From NCBI GenBank assembly GCA_963727525.1, contig CAVSGO010000005.1:512001-576000 (forward strand): a DNA stretch of 64,000 nt, written 5' to 3'. This document shows positions 3,418-12,009 of the stretch, in pieces. The DNA comes from an uncultured bacterium (GTDB taxonomy: Bacteria > Krumholzibacteriota > Krumholzibacteriia > LZORAL124-64-63). Both the position numbers and the translations under genes were made by a program. The notes under the pieces were generated by a model. That model was not told where the DNA came from. It worked only from the letters and a program-made list of their open reading frames with translations, and did not search any database. Numbering within the stretch: position 1 is the first letter of the stretch; each line of letters begins with the position of its first letter.

Positions 3418-3590
3418 CGCTGACTCCCTTGGACACGCTCCGGCTGTCTCCGCCCGTAGATTCGGCGCAATGCGTAGAATGGGGAGAAACGACGTCCAGC
3501 GCAACCCTCGACTGGACCTCCCCGGGGCGGTTTTGGTACATTGGCATCAACTGCCACGACCCCCGTGGATGCGTCGGGAGGACGCGAACC

Positions 3591-5054
3591 ATGCCCACCG
3601 TGCGTCCCGCTGTCCTTGCCGGCACCTGGTACCCCGCCCAGCCGGGGCCACTGCGCAATCACGTCGCCTCGTACCTCGCCATGAGTGAACGCAGCGACCA
3701 GCCGCAGGGCAAGCCCAGGATCGCCGTGGTCCCGCACGCCGGCTACCGGCACAGCGGACCCACCGCCGGCAAGCTCTACGGCCTGCTCGCCGGATTTGCC
3801 TACGACGCGGTATTCATCCTCGCGCCGAGCCATCGCGCGCGTCTGCGGCGCGCCGCGCTGTCGAGCATGACAGCGTATGCCACGCCGCTCGGCGAGGTGC
3901 CCGTGGCCGTGGATATCGTGCAGACGCTGGCGGCCACGCCGTACTTCGACATCGACGACGGCGCCCACGCGATGGAGCACGCGGTGGAAATCCAGCTGCC
4001 GCTGCTGCAGTGCGCGCTGCCGGCCGGCACGCCGATCGTCCCCATCCTCGTCCCCCATCTCGACCGCGCGTCGCGGCTGCACACTGCCGGCACCCTCGAC
4101 CCCTGGCGGGATGCCCGGCATCTGTTCCTCATCTCGAGCGATTTCACCCACTATGGCGACGAGTACGGCTTCGTGCCGTTCACGGATGACGTACCGCAGC
4201 GGATCGAACAGCTCGACACGGGGGCGATCCTGAAGATCCTGGCTCACGACAGCGACGGGCTCATCGAGTACGGCTCGGCCACCGGCATCACGATGTGCGG
4301 CCTCGACGCCGCGGCCGTCGTGCTGCTGGGCGCGCCGCCGGCCGGCTACGAGGCCGCGCTCCTCGGCTACGCGCGAAGCGCCGACGACGATCCCGGCGCG
4401 ACGATGTCCGTGAGCTACGCCGCCATCGTACTCTGCGCCGACGACGACGCCGTCGCCCCTGGCGCCACGCCGGGGCCGGCCGCATTCACACCGCCGGAAC
4501 GCGCGTTCCTGCTCGACCTGGCGCGGGCGGCCGTCACCGCGGCGGCGCGCGGGCACACCGCCCCATCGGCCGCGAGTTTCGCCGCGATGCGCGGCATCGC
4601 CCTCGGGACCGCGCTCCAGGCACGGCGGGGCGTTTTCGTCACGCTCAACGACCGCGGCGGGCACCTGAGAGGCTGCATCGGCACGATCGAGGGCGAGCTT
4701 CCAGTGGTCGATGCGGTGGTCGACAGCGCCACCGGCGCCGCCCTGGCCGACCCACGATTCGTCCCGCTGCGCGAGTCCGAGCTTGACGGGACCACGATCG
4801 AGGTTTCCATACTGACTCCCACGCGGGCGGTGCCCGGCCCGCAGGCGATCGAGATCGGCCGGCACGGGATCGTGCTGCGCAAGGGAAGGCGCAAGGCCGT
4901 GTTCCTACCTCATGTCGCGCCGCAGCAGGGCTGGGACCTCGCGACGACTCTCGACCATCTGGCCATCAAGGCGGGCCTGGCGGCCGACGGTTGGCGCAAC
5001 GGAAGCGAATTCCACGTTTTCGAGGCCGAAATCCTCGGCGAGGAGCGGGATTGA
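3591..5054 (+). CDS. AmmeMemoRadiSam system protein B (MEMO-like) fused to protein A (AMMECR1-like)
   Basis: N-half RPAVLAGTWYP, PHAGY..SG, EHAVEIQLP, SSDFTHYG, TMCG; C-half GVFVTL...LRGCIG, DPRF, IEVSIL, GRHGI, FLPHV, KAGL. Confidence 0.92.
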   Translation: MPTVRPAVLAGTWYPAQPGPLRNHVASYLAMSERSDQPQGKPRIAVVPHAGYRHSGPTAGKLYGLLAGFAYDAVFILAPSHRARLRRAALSSMTAYATPLGEVPVAVDIVQTLAATPYFDIDDGAHAMEHAVEIQLPLLQCALPAGTPIVPILVPHLDRASRLHTAGTLDPWRDARHLFLISSDFTHYGDEYGFVPFTDDVPQRIEQLDTGAILKILAHDSDGLIEYGSATGITMCGLDAAAVVLLGAPPAGYEAALLGYARSADDDPGATMSVSYAAIVLCADDDAVAPGATPGPAAFTPPERAFLLDLARAAVTAAARGHTAPSAASFAAMRGIALGTALQARRGVFVTLNDRGGHLRGCIGTIEGELPVVDAVVDSATGAALADPRFVPLRESELDGTTIEVSILTPTRAVPGPQAIEIGRHGIVLRKGRRKAVFLPHVAPQQGWDLATTLDHLAIKAGLAADGWRNGSEFHVFEAEILGEERD

Positions 5055-5177
5055 ATGCCGGCACGTGAAAATCGTTTGTTCGCGGAGGGCTGTGGGGCTA
5101 TTTTGGGCGGTCGGCAAGATGCCGCCGCGAACGTCCCCGATCCCCCGCTACCTAGCCCGAACCCGGTGACGGAGAGC

Positions 5178-6356
5178 ATGGGCCTTCTGGACAAGTGCCG
5201 GAAATTCCGGACCGCCCGCGACCTGATGGACGCAGGGCTCTACAATTACTTTCGCACCATCGAATCGGCCCAGGAGAACACGGTCCGGTATAAAGGTCAC
5301 GAAGTCATCATGCTGGGCAGCAACAACTACCTGGGGTTGACCAATCATCCCAAGGTGAAGGAAGCGGCCCAGCTGGCCATCGCCAAGTACGGCACGGGTT
5401 GCGCGGGTTCACGTTTCCTCAACGGCACGCTCGACATCCACGTGGAGCTCGAGCAGAAGCTCGCCGCCCTCGTGGGCAAGGAGCGCGCCCAGCTCTTCTC
5501 CACGGGATTCTTCGCGAACCTGGGCACCATCTCCACCATCGTGGGCCGCAACGACGTGGCCATCGTCGACCGCACCGACCATGCCTCCATCATCGACGGC
5601 ACCCGCATGAGTTTCGGCCGCGTGGCGAAGTACAAGCACCAGGACATGGAGAGCCTGGAGTACCTGCTGCAGCGCGAGCGGGAGACGGACAAGCTGGTCA
5701 TCGTCGACGGCGTGTTCTCCATGGAGGGCGACATCGCGCGCCTGCCGGACATCGTCGCGCTGTCCAAGCAGTACGGCGCGCAGACCATGGTGGACGATGC
5801 GCACGGCCTTGGTGTGCTCGGTGACCATGGGCGCGGCACCTGCAACCATTTCGGGCTCACCGACGACGTCGACATCATCGTCGGAACCTTCAGCAAGAGC
5901 CTGGCCTCCGTGGGTGGCTTCGTGGCGGCCGACGCCGACACGATCCACTACATCCAGCACCTCGCCCGTGTGCTCATCTTCTCGGCCAGCCCGCCGCCCG
6001 CGTCGGTGGCCTCGGTCTCGGCCGCCATCGACGTGATGCTCGAGGAAGACTGGCGACACGAGGCCCTGTGGCGCAACACGCACATCATGCTGGAGCGGCT
6101 GCGCGGCGCCGGCTTCGATACCGGCCCCAGCGAGACGCCGGTGATCCCCGCCGTCGTCGGCGACGACCAGATCGCCTTCAAGATGTGCGTGCGCTGTTTC
6201 GATGAGGGCGTGTTCATCAACCCGGTGGTGTCGCCCGCCGTGGAACCGGGGCATGCGCTGATCCGGCTCAGCCTCATGGCCACTCACACCGAGGACGAGA
6301 TCCACAAGGCCATGGACATCATGACGAAGGTGGGCAAGGACCTCGGGGTGGTCTGA
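5178..6356 (+). CDS. spt: Serine palmitoyltransferase-like alpha-oxoamine synthase (PLP)
   Basis: GSNNYLGL, GTGCAGSRFLNGT, DHASI, VDDAHG, GTFSKSLAS (PLP Lys motif typical of bacterial SPT); context with ceramide synthase/reductase-like genes. Confidence 0.8.
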   Translation: MGLLDKCRKFRTARDLMDAGLYNYFRTIESAQENTVRYKGHEVIMLGSNNYLGLTNHPKVKEAAQLAIAKYGTGCAGSRFLNGTLDIHVELEQKLAALVGKERAQLFSTGFFANLGTISTIVGRNDVAIVDRTDHASIIDGTRMSFGRVAKYKHQDMESLEYLLQRERETDKLVIVDGVFSMEGDIARLPDIVALSKQYGAQTMVDDAHGLGVLGDHGRGTCNHFGLTDDVDIIVGTFSKSLASVGGFVAADADTIHYIQHLARVLIFSASPPPASVASVSAAIDVMLEEDWRHEALWRNTHIMLERLRGAGFDTGPSETPVIPAVVGDDQIAFKMCVRCFDEGVFINPVVSPAVEPGHALIRLSLMATHTEDEIHKAMDIMTKVGKDLGVV

Positions 6357-9647: not shown

Positions 9648-9696
9648 GGTGCCCGGCTGGGTTTCTCCCTCCAATCCCCCGACTTGGTCGGGCACC
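9648..9696 (+). ncRNA. Candidate small RNA hairpin with C/U-rich (anti-SD-like) loop
   Basis: 14-bp stem GGTGCCCGGCTGGG/CTTGGTCGGGCACC with 4 G-U pairs that form only on the + strand; loop TTTCTCCCTCCAATCCCCCGA; starts 6 nt after the -10 box. Confidence 0.45.
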
Positions 9697-9710: not shown

Positions 9711-9751
9711 GCGCGTCAGGCGGCCCTCCGGGCCGCCTTCGTGCTACGCGC
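9711..9751 (-). promoter_or_regulatory. Candidate SECIS hairpin of the zinc-ribbon gene
   Basis: After TGA: G-GCGCGT-AGCACGA-AGGCGGCCC-GGA-GGGCCGCCT-G-ACGCGC; loop 23 nt from UGA, no U-tract. Confidence 0.6.
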
Positions 9752-9941
9752 CTCAGCTGAAGCCGCTACCGCAAGACGGCCCACCTTCGCCGCCGCCGGT
9801 GGCGAAGGTCGACAGGGCGCGCTCCACGTCGTGCGACGCGCACTGCGGGCACTGGGCCTCGCCGGCCTCCATCTCCGCGAATGTGAGGATGTCCTCGAAC
9901 GACGTGCCGCACGCGCGGCAGCTGAATTCGAAGATCGGCAT
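9744..9941 (-). CDS. FmdB-family zinc-ribbon protein, probable C-terminal selenoprotein (..CGSGFS-U-GA)
   Basis: MPIFEFSCRACG...CPQCAS (two CxxC), AGGAGG RBS; TGA at 9753-9755 followed by GGC GCG TAG and a SECIS-like hairpin. Without recoding the CDS ends at 9753. Confidence 0.75.
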
Positions 9942-9973
9942 GAATCCTGTCCTCCTGCTGTCGAACTCCCGGA

Positions 9974-10123
9974 TCACTGTCCGGACTTGGTTTCTTTCGG
10001 TTTCTTGTGCGGGTCTCCGACCTCGCAGACGTCCGCCGCTCAGCCCGGGCGGAAACCGAGCCGCGGCAGGATCACGTTGACCACCACGAGGTAGGCCACG
10101 ATGAAGATGATCAGCTTGATCAC
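9974..10123 (-). CDS. Small single-TM protein with in-frame TGA, probable selenoprotein (not in ORF track)
   Basis: GAGGAG RBS + GTG; MIKLIIFIVAYLVVVNVILPRLGFRPG-[TGA 10040-10042]-AADVCEVGDPHKKPKETKSGQ-stop; GC-ending codons throughout the first 27 codons. Confidence 0.65.
10008..10027 (-). promoter_or_regulatory. Candidate SECIS hairpin of the small membrane protein
   Basis: TGCG-A-GGTC-GGA-GACC-CGCA; loop 21 nt from UGA; same C(GGA)G loop as the other candidate. Confidence 0.6.
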
Positions 10124-10154
10124 GGTCCGGCTCCTCTTCGATCGTCCATCTACA

Positions 10155-10180
10155 GTCAACTATCTGCAAATCTAGTTAAC
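10155..10180. promoter_or_regulatory. Imperfect palindrome, candidate repressor operator
   Basis: GTCAACTA-N10-TAGTTAAC (1 mismatch) just downstream of the minus-strand -10 box. Confidence 0.4.
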
Positions 10181-10184
10181 CCTT

Positions 10185-10212
10185 AATTTATCGGTTTTAG
10201 CCGCCCTGTCAA
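10185..10212 (-). promoter_or_regulatory. Sigma70-type promoter of the two small genes
   Basis: Minus strand TTGACA-N16-TAAATT, divergent from metG. Confidence 0.6.
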
Positions 10213-10305
10213 GCTCCCCGGGGCCCCTCTTGCCGCGGCCTTCGCCATGGTGTTTACTTCCAGCCCGATCCAAGAACGCCGATCACCTCGACGCCGGGAG
10301 ACCCC

Positions 10306-12009
10306 GTGAGCCCGTTCCAGCGCACCCTCGTGACCGCCGCCCTGCCCTACGCGAACGGTGACATTCATCTCGGCCACATCGCGGGCGCCTACCTGCCGCC
10401 CGATATCTATGTGCGCTACCTGCGCTTGCGCGGACGACCGGTGCTTTTCATCTGCGGCACCGACGAGTACGGCGTGCCCATCACCCTGGCCGCCGAGAAG
10501 CTCGGCATCACGCCCAAGGCGCTGGTGGACCGCAACTACGTGACGATCCGCGATTCCTTCGCCGGCCTGGGCATCGCTTTCGACAACTTCTCCCAGACCA
10601 GCCGCGCGATCCACACCGAGACCAGCCAGGCGTTCTTCCTCGATCTGCACGGTCAGGGCGTGCTGAAGCAAAAGTCGACCCAGCAGTTCTTCAGCCCCAG
10701 CCAGAAGCGCTTCCTGGCCGACCGCTACATCGAGGGCACCTGCCCACGCTGCCACAAGCCGGGCGCCCGCGGCGACCAGTGCGAGTCGTGCGGTTCGTCG
10801 CTCGATCCCACCGACCTTATCGATCCGCGCGACGTCCTGCACGGCGAACCCCTGGAACTGCGAGAGACCACGCACTGGTTCCTGCCCCTGGGCGACTGGC
10901 AAGAACAACTCGAGGCGTTCATCACCAGTCATCCCGAGTGGAAGGACAACGTCCAGCAGTACTGCCGCTCCTGGCTGACCGAGGGTCTCGAGGACCGCGC
11001 CGTCACGCGCGACATCTCCTGGGGCGTGCCCGTGCCCCTGCCCGACCACGAGGGCAAGGTGCTCTACGTGTGGTTCGACGCGCCCATCGGCTACATCTCC
11101 TCCACGCGCGAATGGGCCATCGCGCAGGGCGACCCCGAAGCGTGGCGGCTGTGGTGGCAGGATCCGGCCACGCGCCTGGTGCACTTCATCGGCAAGGACA
11201 ACATCGTCTTCCACACCCTCATGTTCCCGGCCATGCTCATGGCCCACAGCGAGCCCTGGGTGCTACCCGACAACGTGCCCGCGAACGAGTTCCTCAACCT
11301 CGAGGGCCGCAAGCTGTCCACCAGCCGCGGCTTCGCGGTGTGGCTGCCGGATTACCTCGCGAAGTTCCAGCCGGATCCTCTGCGTTACACCTTGGCGCGC
11401 AACCTGCCCGAGACCCGCGACATGAACTTCACGTGGGAGGGCTTCCTCGCCCGCAACGACAACGAGCTGGGAAACAACTTCGGCAACCTGATCAACCGCG
11501 TCCTCACGTTCATCCACAAGTACTTCGACGGGAACGTGCCCGCGTGGGACCCGTCGCGGCATCAGGACATGGACACGCGCGCCCTCGCCGAGGTGACGGC
11601 GCAGCGCGAGCGATGGGCCGAGCACCTCGAAAAGTTCGAGGTGAAGGCCGCCATGGAGTGCGCCTTCGCCGCCGGTCAGTTGGGCAACCGCTACTTCGAC
11701 GAATCGGCCCCCTTCACCAGCCGCAAGACCGACCTCGCCCGCTGCGCCCACAGCCTGGGCGTGGCTGTGCAGATCCTTCGCCAGCTCGCCGTGATGCTGG
11801 CCCCTGTGTGTCCATTCGCCATGGAAAAGCTCTGGGGCTGGCTGGGCATGAGTACGCCGCTCTTCGACGGCGCCTATGACGAGGGCCTGCAAGACATCCC
11901 GGCGGGCCGCCCTCTCGGCAAGCCGGAGATCCTCTTCCCCCGCCTCGACCCCGCCCTCGTGCAGGCCGAGATCGACCGGCTAAACGCGCTGGTGGCGGAG
12001 CAGGAGTAG
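10306..12009 (+). CDS. metG: Methionyl-tRNA synthetase (no C-terminal tRNA-binding domain)
   Basis: TAALPYANG.IHLGH, GTDEYG, RGDQCE.CG, YVWFDAPIGY, FIGKDN, KLSTSRG. Confidence 0.97.
   Translation: MSPFQRTLVTAALPYANGDIHLGHIAGAYLPPDIYVRYLRLRGRPVLFICGTDEYGVPITLAAEKLGITPKALVDRNYVTIRDSFAGLGIAFDNFSQTSRAIHTETSQAFFLDLHGQGVLKQKSTQQFFSPSQKRFLADRYIEGTCPRCHKPGARGDQCESCGSSLDPTDLIDPRDVLHGEPLELRETTHWFLPLGDWQEQLEAFITSHPEWKDNVQQYCRSWLTEGLEDRAVTRDISWGVPVPLPDHEGKVLYVWFDAPIGYISSTREWAIAQGDPEAWRLWWQDPATRLVHFIGKDNIVFHTLMFPAMLMAHSEPWVLPDNVPANEFLNLEGRKLSTSRGFAVWLPDYLAKFQPDPLRYTLARNLPETRDMNFTWEGFLARNDNELGNNFGNLINRVLTFIHKYFDGNVPAWDPSRHQDMDTRALAEVTAQRERWAEHLEKFEVKAAMECAFAAGQLGNRYFDESAPFTSRKTDLARCAHSLGVAVQILRQLAVMLAPVCPFAMEKLWGWLGMSTPLFDGAYDEGLQDIPAGRPLGKPEILFPRLDPALVQAEIDRLNALVAEQE

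Follow-up and report, generated by a model that had tools for sequence, protein, structure and literature searches.

Two adjacent genes with in-frame UGA codons and SECIS-type hairpins as probable selenoprotein genes of an uncultured Krumholzibacteriota bacterium

Two short hairpins with the same GGA loop, each lying 3′ of a TGA triplet, are found in a 64,000-nucleotide stretch of DNA from an uncultured bacterium of the Krumholzibacteriota (assembly GCA_963727525.1, contig CAVSGO010000005.1, positions 512,001 to 576,000; the whole stretch is referred to below as the window), and they raise the question of whether the two TGA codons are stops or are read as selenocysteine (Sec). An initial annotation of the window had proposed that the hairpins share a C(GGA)G consensus recognised by SelB and represent a lineage-specific selenocysteine insertion sequence (SECIS). 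The analysis conducted in the present study indicates that both hairpins are likely to be bacterial SECIS elements (bSECIS) of two adjacent genes with one Sec codon each. This interpretation is well supported, and in our opinion very likely, for the first gene, encoding a small membrane peptide, and it is probable for the second, encoding a zinc-ribbon protein of the FmdB family. Most likely, two neighbouring genes of an uncultured phylum encode uncatalogued Sec-containing proteins; as an RNA element, the SECIS is of an ordinary bacterial type, whereas the gene families marked by it appear to be new as Sec forms. The two genes and their hairpins are located as follows:

9977..10123, minus strand: small membrane-peptide gene; start GTG at 10123, in-frame TGA (candidate Sec, codon 28) at 10042..10040, 49 codons, real stop TGA at 9976..9974
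9747..9941, minus strand: FmdB-family zinc-ribbon gene; start ATG at 9941, in-frame TGA (candidate Sec, codon 63) at 9755..9753, then Gly-Ala, real stop TAG at 9746..9744
10008..10027, minus strand: hairpin 2, candidate SECIS within the coding sequence of the peptide gene; the Gly36 codon forms the GGA loop (+25..+27, counted from the U of UGA)
9718..9738, minus strand: hairpin 1, candidate SECIS in the 3′ untranslated region (UTR) of the zinc-ribbon gene; 9-bp G+C stem; the GGA loop occupies +27..+29, counted from the U of UGA

Both hairpins are present as described in the initial annotation, on the minus strand, with a GGA loop closed by a C-G pair and each 3′ of a TGA. Hairpin 1 (9738..9718 (−), AGGCGGCCC-GGA-GGGCCGCCT) has a perfect 9-bp stem, and hairpin 2 (10027..10008 (−), TGCG-A-GGTC-GGA-GACC-CGCA) is composed of 4 bp, a bulged A and 4 bp. 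They start 14 and 12 nt after the TGA, respectively, and the distances from the A of UGA to the first loop G, 23 nt for hairpin 1 and 21 nt for hairpin 2, are indeed nearly equal, as had been pointed out; of the 5′-side bulge or internal loop ascribed to both, the bulge is found in hairpin 2 (bulged A), and hairpin 1 has a 5′ internal loop only if the outer helix of its 61-nt fold is counted. Folding in isolation gave a minimum free energy (MFE) of −18.6 kcal/mol for hairpin 1 and of −9.4 kcal/mol for the 20-mer of hairpin 2, the latter with the same structure as that initially drawn. The 61-nt region of hairpin 1 has a z-score of −2.0, with 9 of 200 shuffled sequences folding as well. The window contains 42 GGA-triloop hairpins with a stem of at least 4 bp, eight of them C-G-closed, and an Rfam scan of the window at gathering thresholds revealed no match. 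Taken from the window alone, the two hairpins are not above chance; their significance comes from related genomes.

Single-sequence protein searches with a word index matched the zinc-ribbon query to itself only and yielded no match for the peptide query; MetG, encoded next to the two genes, was therefore used for the genome scan, and profiles were needed to find protein relatives. The comparison set comprises 45 MetG-anchored loci (L001–L043, L057 and L068) with 68–85% MetG identity, many of which are from Candidatus Krumholzibacteriota or Krumholzibacteriia, in agreement with the type IX secretion system (T9SS), Gld and sphingolipid genes of the window. Of these 45 loci, 38 contain the small open reading frame (ORF) and 37 the zinc-ribbon gene according to tblastn searches. 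Seven loci in which neither was detected (L016, L017, L020, L022, L028, L040 and L041) extend no farther than 2,830 nt upstream of metG, so that the genes cannot be called absent from them, and the sequence of L043 ends before the zinc-ribbon gene. Neither gene was found near metG in 35 loci from other phyla (49–54% MetG identity).

The peptide gene is preceded by a GAGGAG Shine–Dalgarno sequence before the GTG start; its ORF up to the first TGA comprises 27 codons and is hydrophobic, and reading through this TGA adds 21 codons, up to the TGA at 9976..9974. The predicted product contains a transmembrane helix followed by PRLGFRPG-U-AADV-C-EVGD, where U stands for Sec. An open frame of such length is expected by chance at 67% G+C and is no evidence by itself. 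The first stop, however, is TGA in all 39 copies, and the frame then stays open for 15–45 codons until a second stop, which is TGA in 15 copies, TAG in 15 and TAA in nine; a start codon with a Shine–Dalgarno-like motif lies 26–30 codons before the TGA in every copy. When the TGA is translated as U, the positions P20, G23, U28, C33 and D37 are invariant in the alignment, and the copies share the motif P-[RK]-[LF]-G-x2-3-U-x4-C-[SE]-[VI]-G-D.

A search with the peptide profile against 1.84 billion representatives yielded 171 matches at E ≤ 1e-3, and 149 of the 150 listed were analysed; P0124 (4,897 aa) was taken as a repetitive protein and left out of the counts. The latter is the best-scoring match (18 stretches), yet it covers only positions 27–47 of the profile. 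Among the 149 homologues, the U column contains Cys in 87, the end of the protein exactly at this point in 39, Trp in 15, Gly in two, Leu in two and something else in four, and the second Cys is present in all 110 homologues that reach it. Such a mixture, with Cys homologues at the UGA column and conserved flanks, is the usual Sec/Cys signature of a selenoprotein family, and it is the decisive result for the predicted Sec form of the peptide. No Pfam or NCBIfam model was found for the family. One homologue of the Cys form, P0221 (208 aa), is fused to a complete thioredoxin (WCGPC; TIGR01068, E 1.2e-30), which hints at a thiol-disulfide link, but could also be a gene-calling fusion of neighbouring genes. 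An Atlas look-up of a Cys-form homologue pointed, as a lead only, to a “hypothetical protein” cluster, commonest in Planctomycetota (score 0.88).

The zinc-ribbon ORF comprises 62 codons up to its first TGA, and its product shows clear similarity to TIGR02605 (E 8.4e-16, 57.8 bits, cut-off 31.3) and PF09723 (E 1.1e-12, 48.1 bits, cut-off 34.4); an N-terminal CxxC, separated by 17–20 residues from a second CxxC, and the scores above the curated cut-offs identify it as an FmdB-type ribbon. All four ribbon Cys are kept in the alignment. The tail in the window reads ...SCGSGFS-U-GA, and the sequence before the TGA is C-G-x-G-G-F-[T/S] among the orthologues, with F61 invariant and C57 present in at least 90% of them. 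Of 38 copies, 37 have TGA as their first stop. In the exception (L019:2680-2905 (−)), the Gly-rich tail is frameshifted and GGCTTCACC-TGA-GGC-TAG is kept in another frame, which is probably due to an assembly indel in a low-complexity run. After the TGA, either one codon (20 copies) or two codons (17 copies) precede the next stop (TGA in 19, TAG in 17 and TAA in one). The single codon always specifies Gly (GGC in 13 copies, GGT in six, GGA in one), and the dipeptides are Gly-Val, Gly-Ala, Gly-Ser, Ser-Val and Ala-Ser, the last being spelt GCC-AGC, GCG-TCC, GCA-TCC, GCG-AGT and GCA-AGT. The use of both Ser codon families indicates selection on the residues after the TGA; a near and variable second stop, together with synonymous changes between the stops, is as expected if ribosomes pass the TGA. 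A profile search yielded 2,875 zinc-ribbon relatives (E ≤ 1e-3), and the best 120 of them all end at ...GF[T/S/A], exactly at the TGA point; the named entries among these 120 are annotated as ordinary zinc-ribbon proteins of 66–73 residues.

An energy-only search, in which the loop was left unconstrained, found a hairpin of 5–10 bp downstream of the zinc-ribbon TGA in all 37 copies, with energies from −3.5 to −19.5 kcal/mol (≤ −7.5 kcal/mol in 27 of 37). The loops chosen in this way by energy fit (C)G[G/U]N in 35 of the 37 copies (GGA, GGG, GUG, GUU, GUA, GGUC or C-G-[G/U]-N-N), and, without exception, the sense strand of the loop is rich in G. The first loop G is located at +20 to +27 in 36 copies (16–23 nt after the UGA) and at +36 (32 nt) in L009. 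All nine stem pairs of hairpin 1 have changed on both sides (54 cells), and the covariation score was reached by none of 500 shuffles.

The counterparts of hairpin 2 are even in position: the loop lies at +25 in 38 of 39 copies (21 nt after the UGA), L004 having one extra codon, and it is GGN in 37 copies, GCA in one and GUG in one. The local fold reaches −7.5 kcal/mol or lower in 37 of 39 copies, and RNAalifold predicted the 4-bp core with the triloop de novo. The stem is a continuous 7-bp one in the copies with Ser after the second Cys and consists of 4 bp, a bulged A and 4 bp in those with Glu, including the window. The pair at columns 25–33, which joins the first base of the Ile/Val codon with the synonymous third base of the Asp codon, is intact in all copies, as GC in 21 and as AU in 18. 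L034 and L035 have GUC with GAC, and their nearest relatives L025 and L036 have AUC with GAU, which indicates that the switch occurred more than once; here, too, none of 500 shuffles reached the covariation score.

According to the general bSECIS model outlined in a 2026 review (PMC13188914), the loop is 3–9 nt long, the upper stem has 4–16 bp, the MFE is ≤ −7.5 kcal/mol and the spacing is 16–37 nt; the loop has a G in its first two positions and mostly follows N1-G-[G|U]-N-N2 (PMC13188914). Both window hairpins agree with this description in loop, stem, energy, loop G and spacing, and among their orthologues the UGA is conserved and compensatory changes are seen. The pattern common to the orthologous hairpins includes a closing C, G-[G/U]-N and often a G, with the loop 16–24 nt after the UGA (32 nt in L009) and stems of 4–10 bp. 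Since this pattern is that of the published model, both hairpins can be read as putative SECIS elements recruiting SelB with Sec-tRNA(Sec). A ribosome arriving at the UGA would meet a hairpin 12–14 nt downstream, bound by SelB carrying Sec-tRNA(Sec); the loop would present G-G/U, and the UGA would then be read as Sec and not as a stop. The first gene would give a peptide of 49 residues that spans the membrane once and has a U-x4-C pair just past the helix; the SECIS of this gene would lie inside the coding sequence, so that the same bases spell C-[E/S]-[V/I]-G-D. The second would give an FmdB-type zinc ribbon with a Gly-rich tail ending in C-G-x-G-G-F-[T/S]-U-G(-x)-stop, and its SECIS would be placed in the 3′ UTR because only one or two residues follow the Sec. 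SelB binding, Sec insertion and a joint role of the two Sec/Cys pairs in redox reactions or metal handling are predicted here from sequence comparison.

Several observations weigh against Sec insertion at the two codons. No tRNA, hence no tRNA-Sec, was found in the window or in the 45 loci, and selA, selB and selD are not among the 30 scanned ORFs of the window. The orthologous sequences are related, so the copy counts given above do not represent independent events. In the window, a TGA followed at +20..+28 by a G[G/U]-loop hairpin with a stem of at least 5 bp was found in 43 of 1,550 cases, compared with 19 of 452 for TAG and none of 128 for TAA, and such a generic hairpin is as common after any position (2.8%) as after TGA (2.8%). 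At the real stops of 61 predicted genes, weak 5-bp hairpins follow 2 of 28 TGA, 2 of 26 TAG and none of 7 TAA codons. The percentage of paired cells in hairpin 1, 80.8% in loop-anchored windows as compared with 35–51% with a slid partner, is inflated, as the windows, centred on G[G/T]N, were picked for maximal pairing. For the 61-nt context of hairpin 2, the z-score is −0.5 (59 of 200 shuffles being as good), and the MFE structure is a different fold. Hairpin 1 is located at the place expected of a terminator, after the last gene and between convergent genes, with U-runs in L023 and L027. No Cys form of the zinc-ribbon tail is present among the best 120 of the 2,875 relatives, so the Sec/Cys pairing of the peptide type is lacking for this gene. 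Finally, the presence of TGA in the DNA behind the Trp, Gly and protein-end forms of the peptide is deduced from the protein entries.

The position of hairpin 1, the U-runs in two orthologues and the missing Cys form, together with G+C-rich hairpins of equal covariance-model score within other genes of the window, can be accommodated by assuming that hairpin 1 is solely the 3′ end of the operon, either a U-tract-poor terminator or an mRNA-stabilising structure; the zinc-ribbon TGA would then be a true stop, and the peptide gene alone, or neither gene, would encode a selenoprotein. We regard this explanation as unlikely. A consensus terminator scan found no site at hairpin 1, which has no T-run, nor at hairpin 2; the window tail is GACGCGCGAGAA, and 35 of 37 copies, the window included, are without U-runs. 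A plain stop would not be expected to be TGA almost without exception (37 of 38 copies) in front of a next stop of varying identity, nor to be followed by a second in-frame stop within 1–2 codons in 37 of 37 copies, nor would the codons after it keep Gly or Ala-Ser through synonymous changes. The loop sequence of hairpin 1, its strand bias and its distance from the UGA are conserved as well. Moreover, the roles of a terminator and of a SECIS are not exclusive, and hairpin 1 may also help to end or stabilise the transcript. In L023:1095-1154 (−) and L027:2828-2887 (−), the U-run follows directly after the hairpin (UUUUUUUUU and UUUUAUUUU, respectively), and the hairpin could double as an intrinsic terminator there.

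It is less probable still, and in our view quite improbable, that hairpin 2 is a by-product of the conserved peptide or a chance fold, e.g., if the short ORF were a regulatory leader peptide with a downstream RNA element. The unremarkable z-score of its context, the presence of eight C-GGA-G hairpins with stems of at least 4 bp in the window and the fact that its stem bases double as codons of conserved residues are compatible with this assumption. The choice of the synonymous Asp codon, however, tracks the pairing partner: GAT is used in all 18 Ile-type (AUC) copies, whereas only 142 of 669 Asp codons (21%) are GAT in metG of the same 18 genomes, and a change of CGG to CGA keeps the pairing, with U-A in place of U-G. 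In addition, the Cys found at the TGA column in more than half of the analysed homologues (87) and the invariant downstream Cys indicate that the region after the TGA is protein-coding in the family.

The homologues with Trp or Gly at the Sec column, 17 together (Trp in P0126, P0136, P0137, P0155, P0159 and others; Gly in P0133 and P0146), require a separate comment. Translation tables 4 and 25 give Trp and Gly, respectively, for TGA, from which we infer that the Trp, Gly and protein-end entries are further TGA forms; a Sec codon may mislead the automatic choice of the genetic code in the contigs concerned. Reading of the UGA as Trp, Gly or Cys through a reassigned code or near-cognate suppression, without Sec machinery, would fit these 15 Trp and two Gly entries at face value, but it is very improbable. 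TGA is an ordinary stop elsewhere in the window, where 26 of 59 predicted genes end in it, among them those of FabH and serine palmitoyltransferase, whose products match their models to the normal ends, so that a reassigned code is excluded. Trp and Gly are what gene callers print for TGA under the two tables, and both the alignment of the UGA with Cys and the hairpin of bSECIS type speak for Sec.

The SECIS behaviour postulated in the initial annotation is thus borne out by invariant TGA codons, compensatory changes and SECIS-like spacing and, for one of the genes, by Cys homologues. The proposed consensus fared differently: no more than 6 of 39 peptide and 6 of 37 zinc-ribbon orthologous hairpins have the exact C(GGA)G, and other loops include GGN, GUG, GUU, GUA, CGGGA, CGUGC and similar ones. 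The consensus is rather C-G-[G/U]-N-(G), i.e., the general bacterial SECIS pattern as published (PMC13188914), and, since N1-G-[G|U]-N-N2 at 16–37 nt belongs to the general model outlined there, it is not lineage-specific. The suggestion that the hairpin could be used to enumerate a selenoproteome does not agree with the frequencies in the window given above, which are equal after TGA and after any position and similar at the real TGA and TAG stops. When the stem was extended to at least 6 bp, 15 TGA sites of the window matched, and only the zinc-ribbon TGA had an upstream coding frame (G+C content at third codon positions, 0.90). A covariance model built from the 37 orthologous zinc-ribbon hairpins and scanned over the window at E ≤ 10 gave 68 matches; hairpin 1 took third place with 20.3 bits, behind two matches without an upstream TGA, and hairpin 2 was not among the 68. 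The hairpin was rejected as a stand-alone search tool, both the pattern scan and the covariance model being unspecific in the window. In G+C-rich DNA, a SECIS hairpin of this kind is unrecognisable from one genome, and what identifies it is the invariant TGA, the variable second stop and the covariation among orthologues; workable detection is the combination of a TGA within a coding frame, its conservation among orthologues with a variable second stop, and covariation.

The two genes are adjacent and co-oriented, the zinc-ribbon gene being the last and convergent with the next gene, and they are predicted to form one unit. The gap from the read-through stop of the peptide to the zinc-ribbon start is 6–68 nt. 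In L011, L012, L014 and L021, the read-through stop is located 6–7 nt before the zinc-ribbon ATG, and a separate Shine–Dalgarno sequence is not visible, which suggests translational coupling dependent on the reading of the UGA. Two further features are found upstream of the unit:

10185..10212, minus strand: promoter-like site upstream of the two-gene unit (TTGACA, 16 nt, TAAATT; 10 of 12 consensus matches, a consensus match only)
10306..12009: metG, divergent from the two-gene unit (from the gene scan of the window)

An A+T-rich block, roughly ...TAGTCAATGAGTTAYGCAGATA..., is conserved 40–60 nt before the start of the small ORF in many orthologous loci (L002, L003, L005, L009, L018, L031, L057 and L068), and the window reads GCAGATAGTTGACT at 10140-10215 (−); this block with its σ70-like site may be a promoter or an operator. 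The 3′ UTR that contains hairpin 1 has a further hairpin, GTCGGGT-GGT-GCCCGAC (9676-9696 (−)), about 20 nt farther 3′, which is not followed by a T-run. Elsewhere in the window, a fusion of AmmeMemoRadiSam system proteins B and A is encoded at 3429-5051 (+), and its TGA abuts the ATG of a serine palmitoyltransferase-like gene (5055-6353 (+)). Farther on, the window encodes T9SS-tailed proteins and homologues of GldA, GldF and GldG, which fits an organism of the Fibrobacterota–Chlorobiota–Bacteroidota (FCB) group.

The same review catalogues 119 prokaryotic selenoprotein families and subfamilies in its Table 1 (PMC13188914), and neither of the two Sec forms appears in that table, where no small membrane peptide with [U/C]-x4-C is listed. 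Literature searches on Sec use in Krumholzibacteri*, extending over main texts, found no relevant statement, and those on bacterial zinc-ribbon selenoproteins with SECIS elements found nothing relevant, although supplements may hold candidate lists. A tentative picture, which we consider possible but rather less than even in likelihood, is that of a so far unrecognised two-selenoprotein module conserved across Candidatus Krumholzibacteriota, in which electrons, or else a bound metal or chalcogen, would be handed on between the selenol/thiol pairs of a membrane peptide with U-x4-C at the inner face and a soluble zinc ribbon with a flexible Gly-rich tail (C-x6-U-G). If true, it would be the first evidence of Sec use in the phylum, and the gene pair, if confirmed, would demonstrate such use in an FCB-group phylum known only from uncultured members. 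The [C/U]-x4-C family of the peptide is a wide one and includes the thioredoxin fusion P0221. Current annotation cuts the zinc ribbon at the UGA, the database entries among its best 120 of 2,875 relatives ending in ...GGFT, and mostly misses the 27-codon peptide or shortens it.

Comparison with known systems places the RNA elements among familiar ones and sets the proteins apart. Both window hairpins, and most of the orthologous ones, satisfy all constraints of the outlined bSECIS model (PMC13188914), from which they show no structural difference; the exact C(GGA)G of the window is one variant among many, and hairpin 1 lies wholly in the 3′ UTR. Hairpin 1 resembles Rho-independent terminators in being G+C-rich and following the last gene, and two of its orthologues have U-runs. 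It differs from them in that the U-tract is absent from the window and from 35 of 37 copies, and in that the loop and the distance from the UGA are conserved. In the SECIS of E. coli fdhF, a short apical hairpin begins about 11 nt after the UGA; its loop contains G and U, and one base is bulged out on the 5′ side. The spacers of 12 and 14 nt and the bulged A of hairpin 2 are similar to those of the fdhF element, but there is no sequence similarity, and triloops or pentaloops are found here instead of the fdhF loop.

As for the proteins, the tail of thioredoxin reductase is GCUG, with the Sec close to the end. The “UXX-star” and “KCU-star” selenoprotein families, as listed in the review, also have the Sec just before the stop (PMC13188914). 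The predicted zinc-ribbon selenoprotein shares with these three a Sec placed 1–3 residues before the stop, a flexible tail and a nearby Cys, but its domain is different from that of UXX-star and KCU-star proteins, and a comparison of the extended zinc-ribbon proteins with NF041114, NF041211 and NF033934 was negative at E ≤ 1. Selenoproteins of the FmdB family itself were predicted in the Global Ocean Sampling set, with Sec replacing a Cys of the ribbon CxxC, as described in that report (PMC2398784), and Sec forms of this family are listed as U/CxxU and UxxU (PMC9312934, PMC13188914). The ocean proteins and the protein described here share the domain family TIGR02605 and their status as predicted selenoproteins; in the latter, however, the four ribbon Cys are intact, and the Sec would be located in the C-terminal tail C-G-x-G-G-F-[T/S]-U-G. 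By the convention stated in the review, a different position of the Sec defines a distinct subfamily (PMC13188914).

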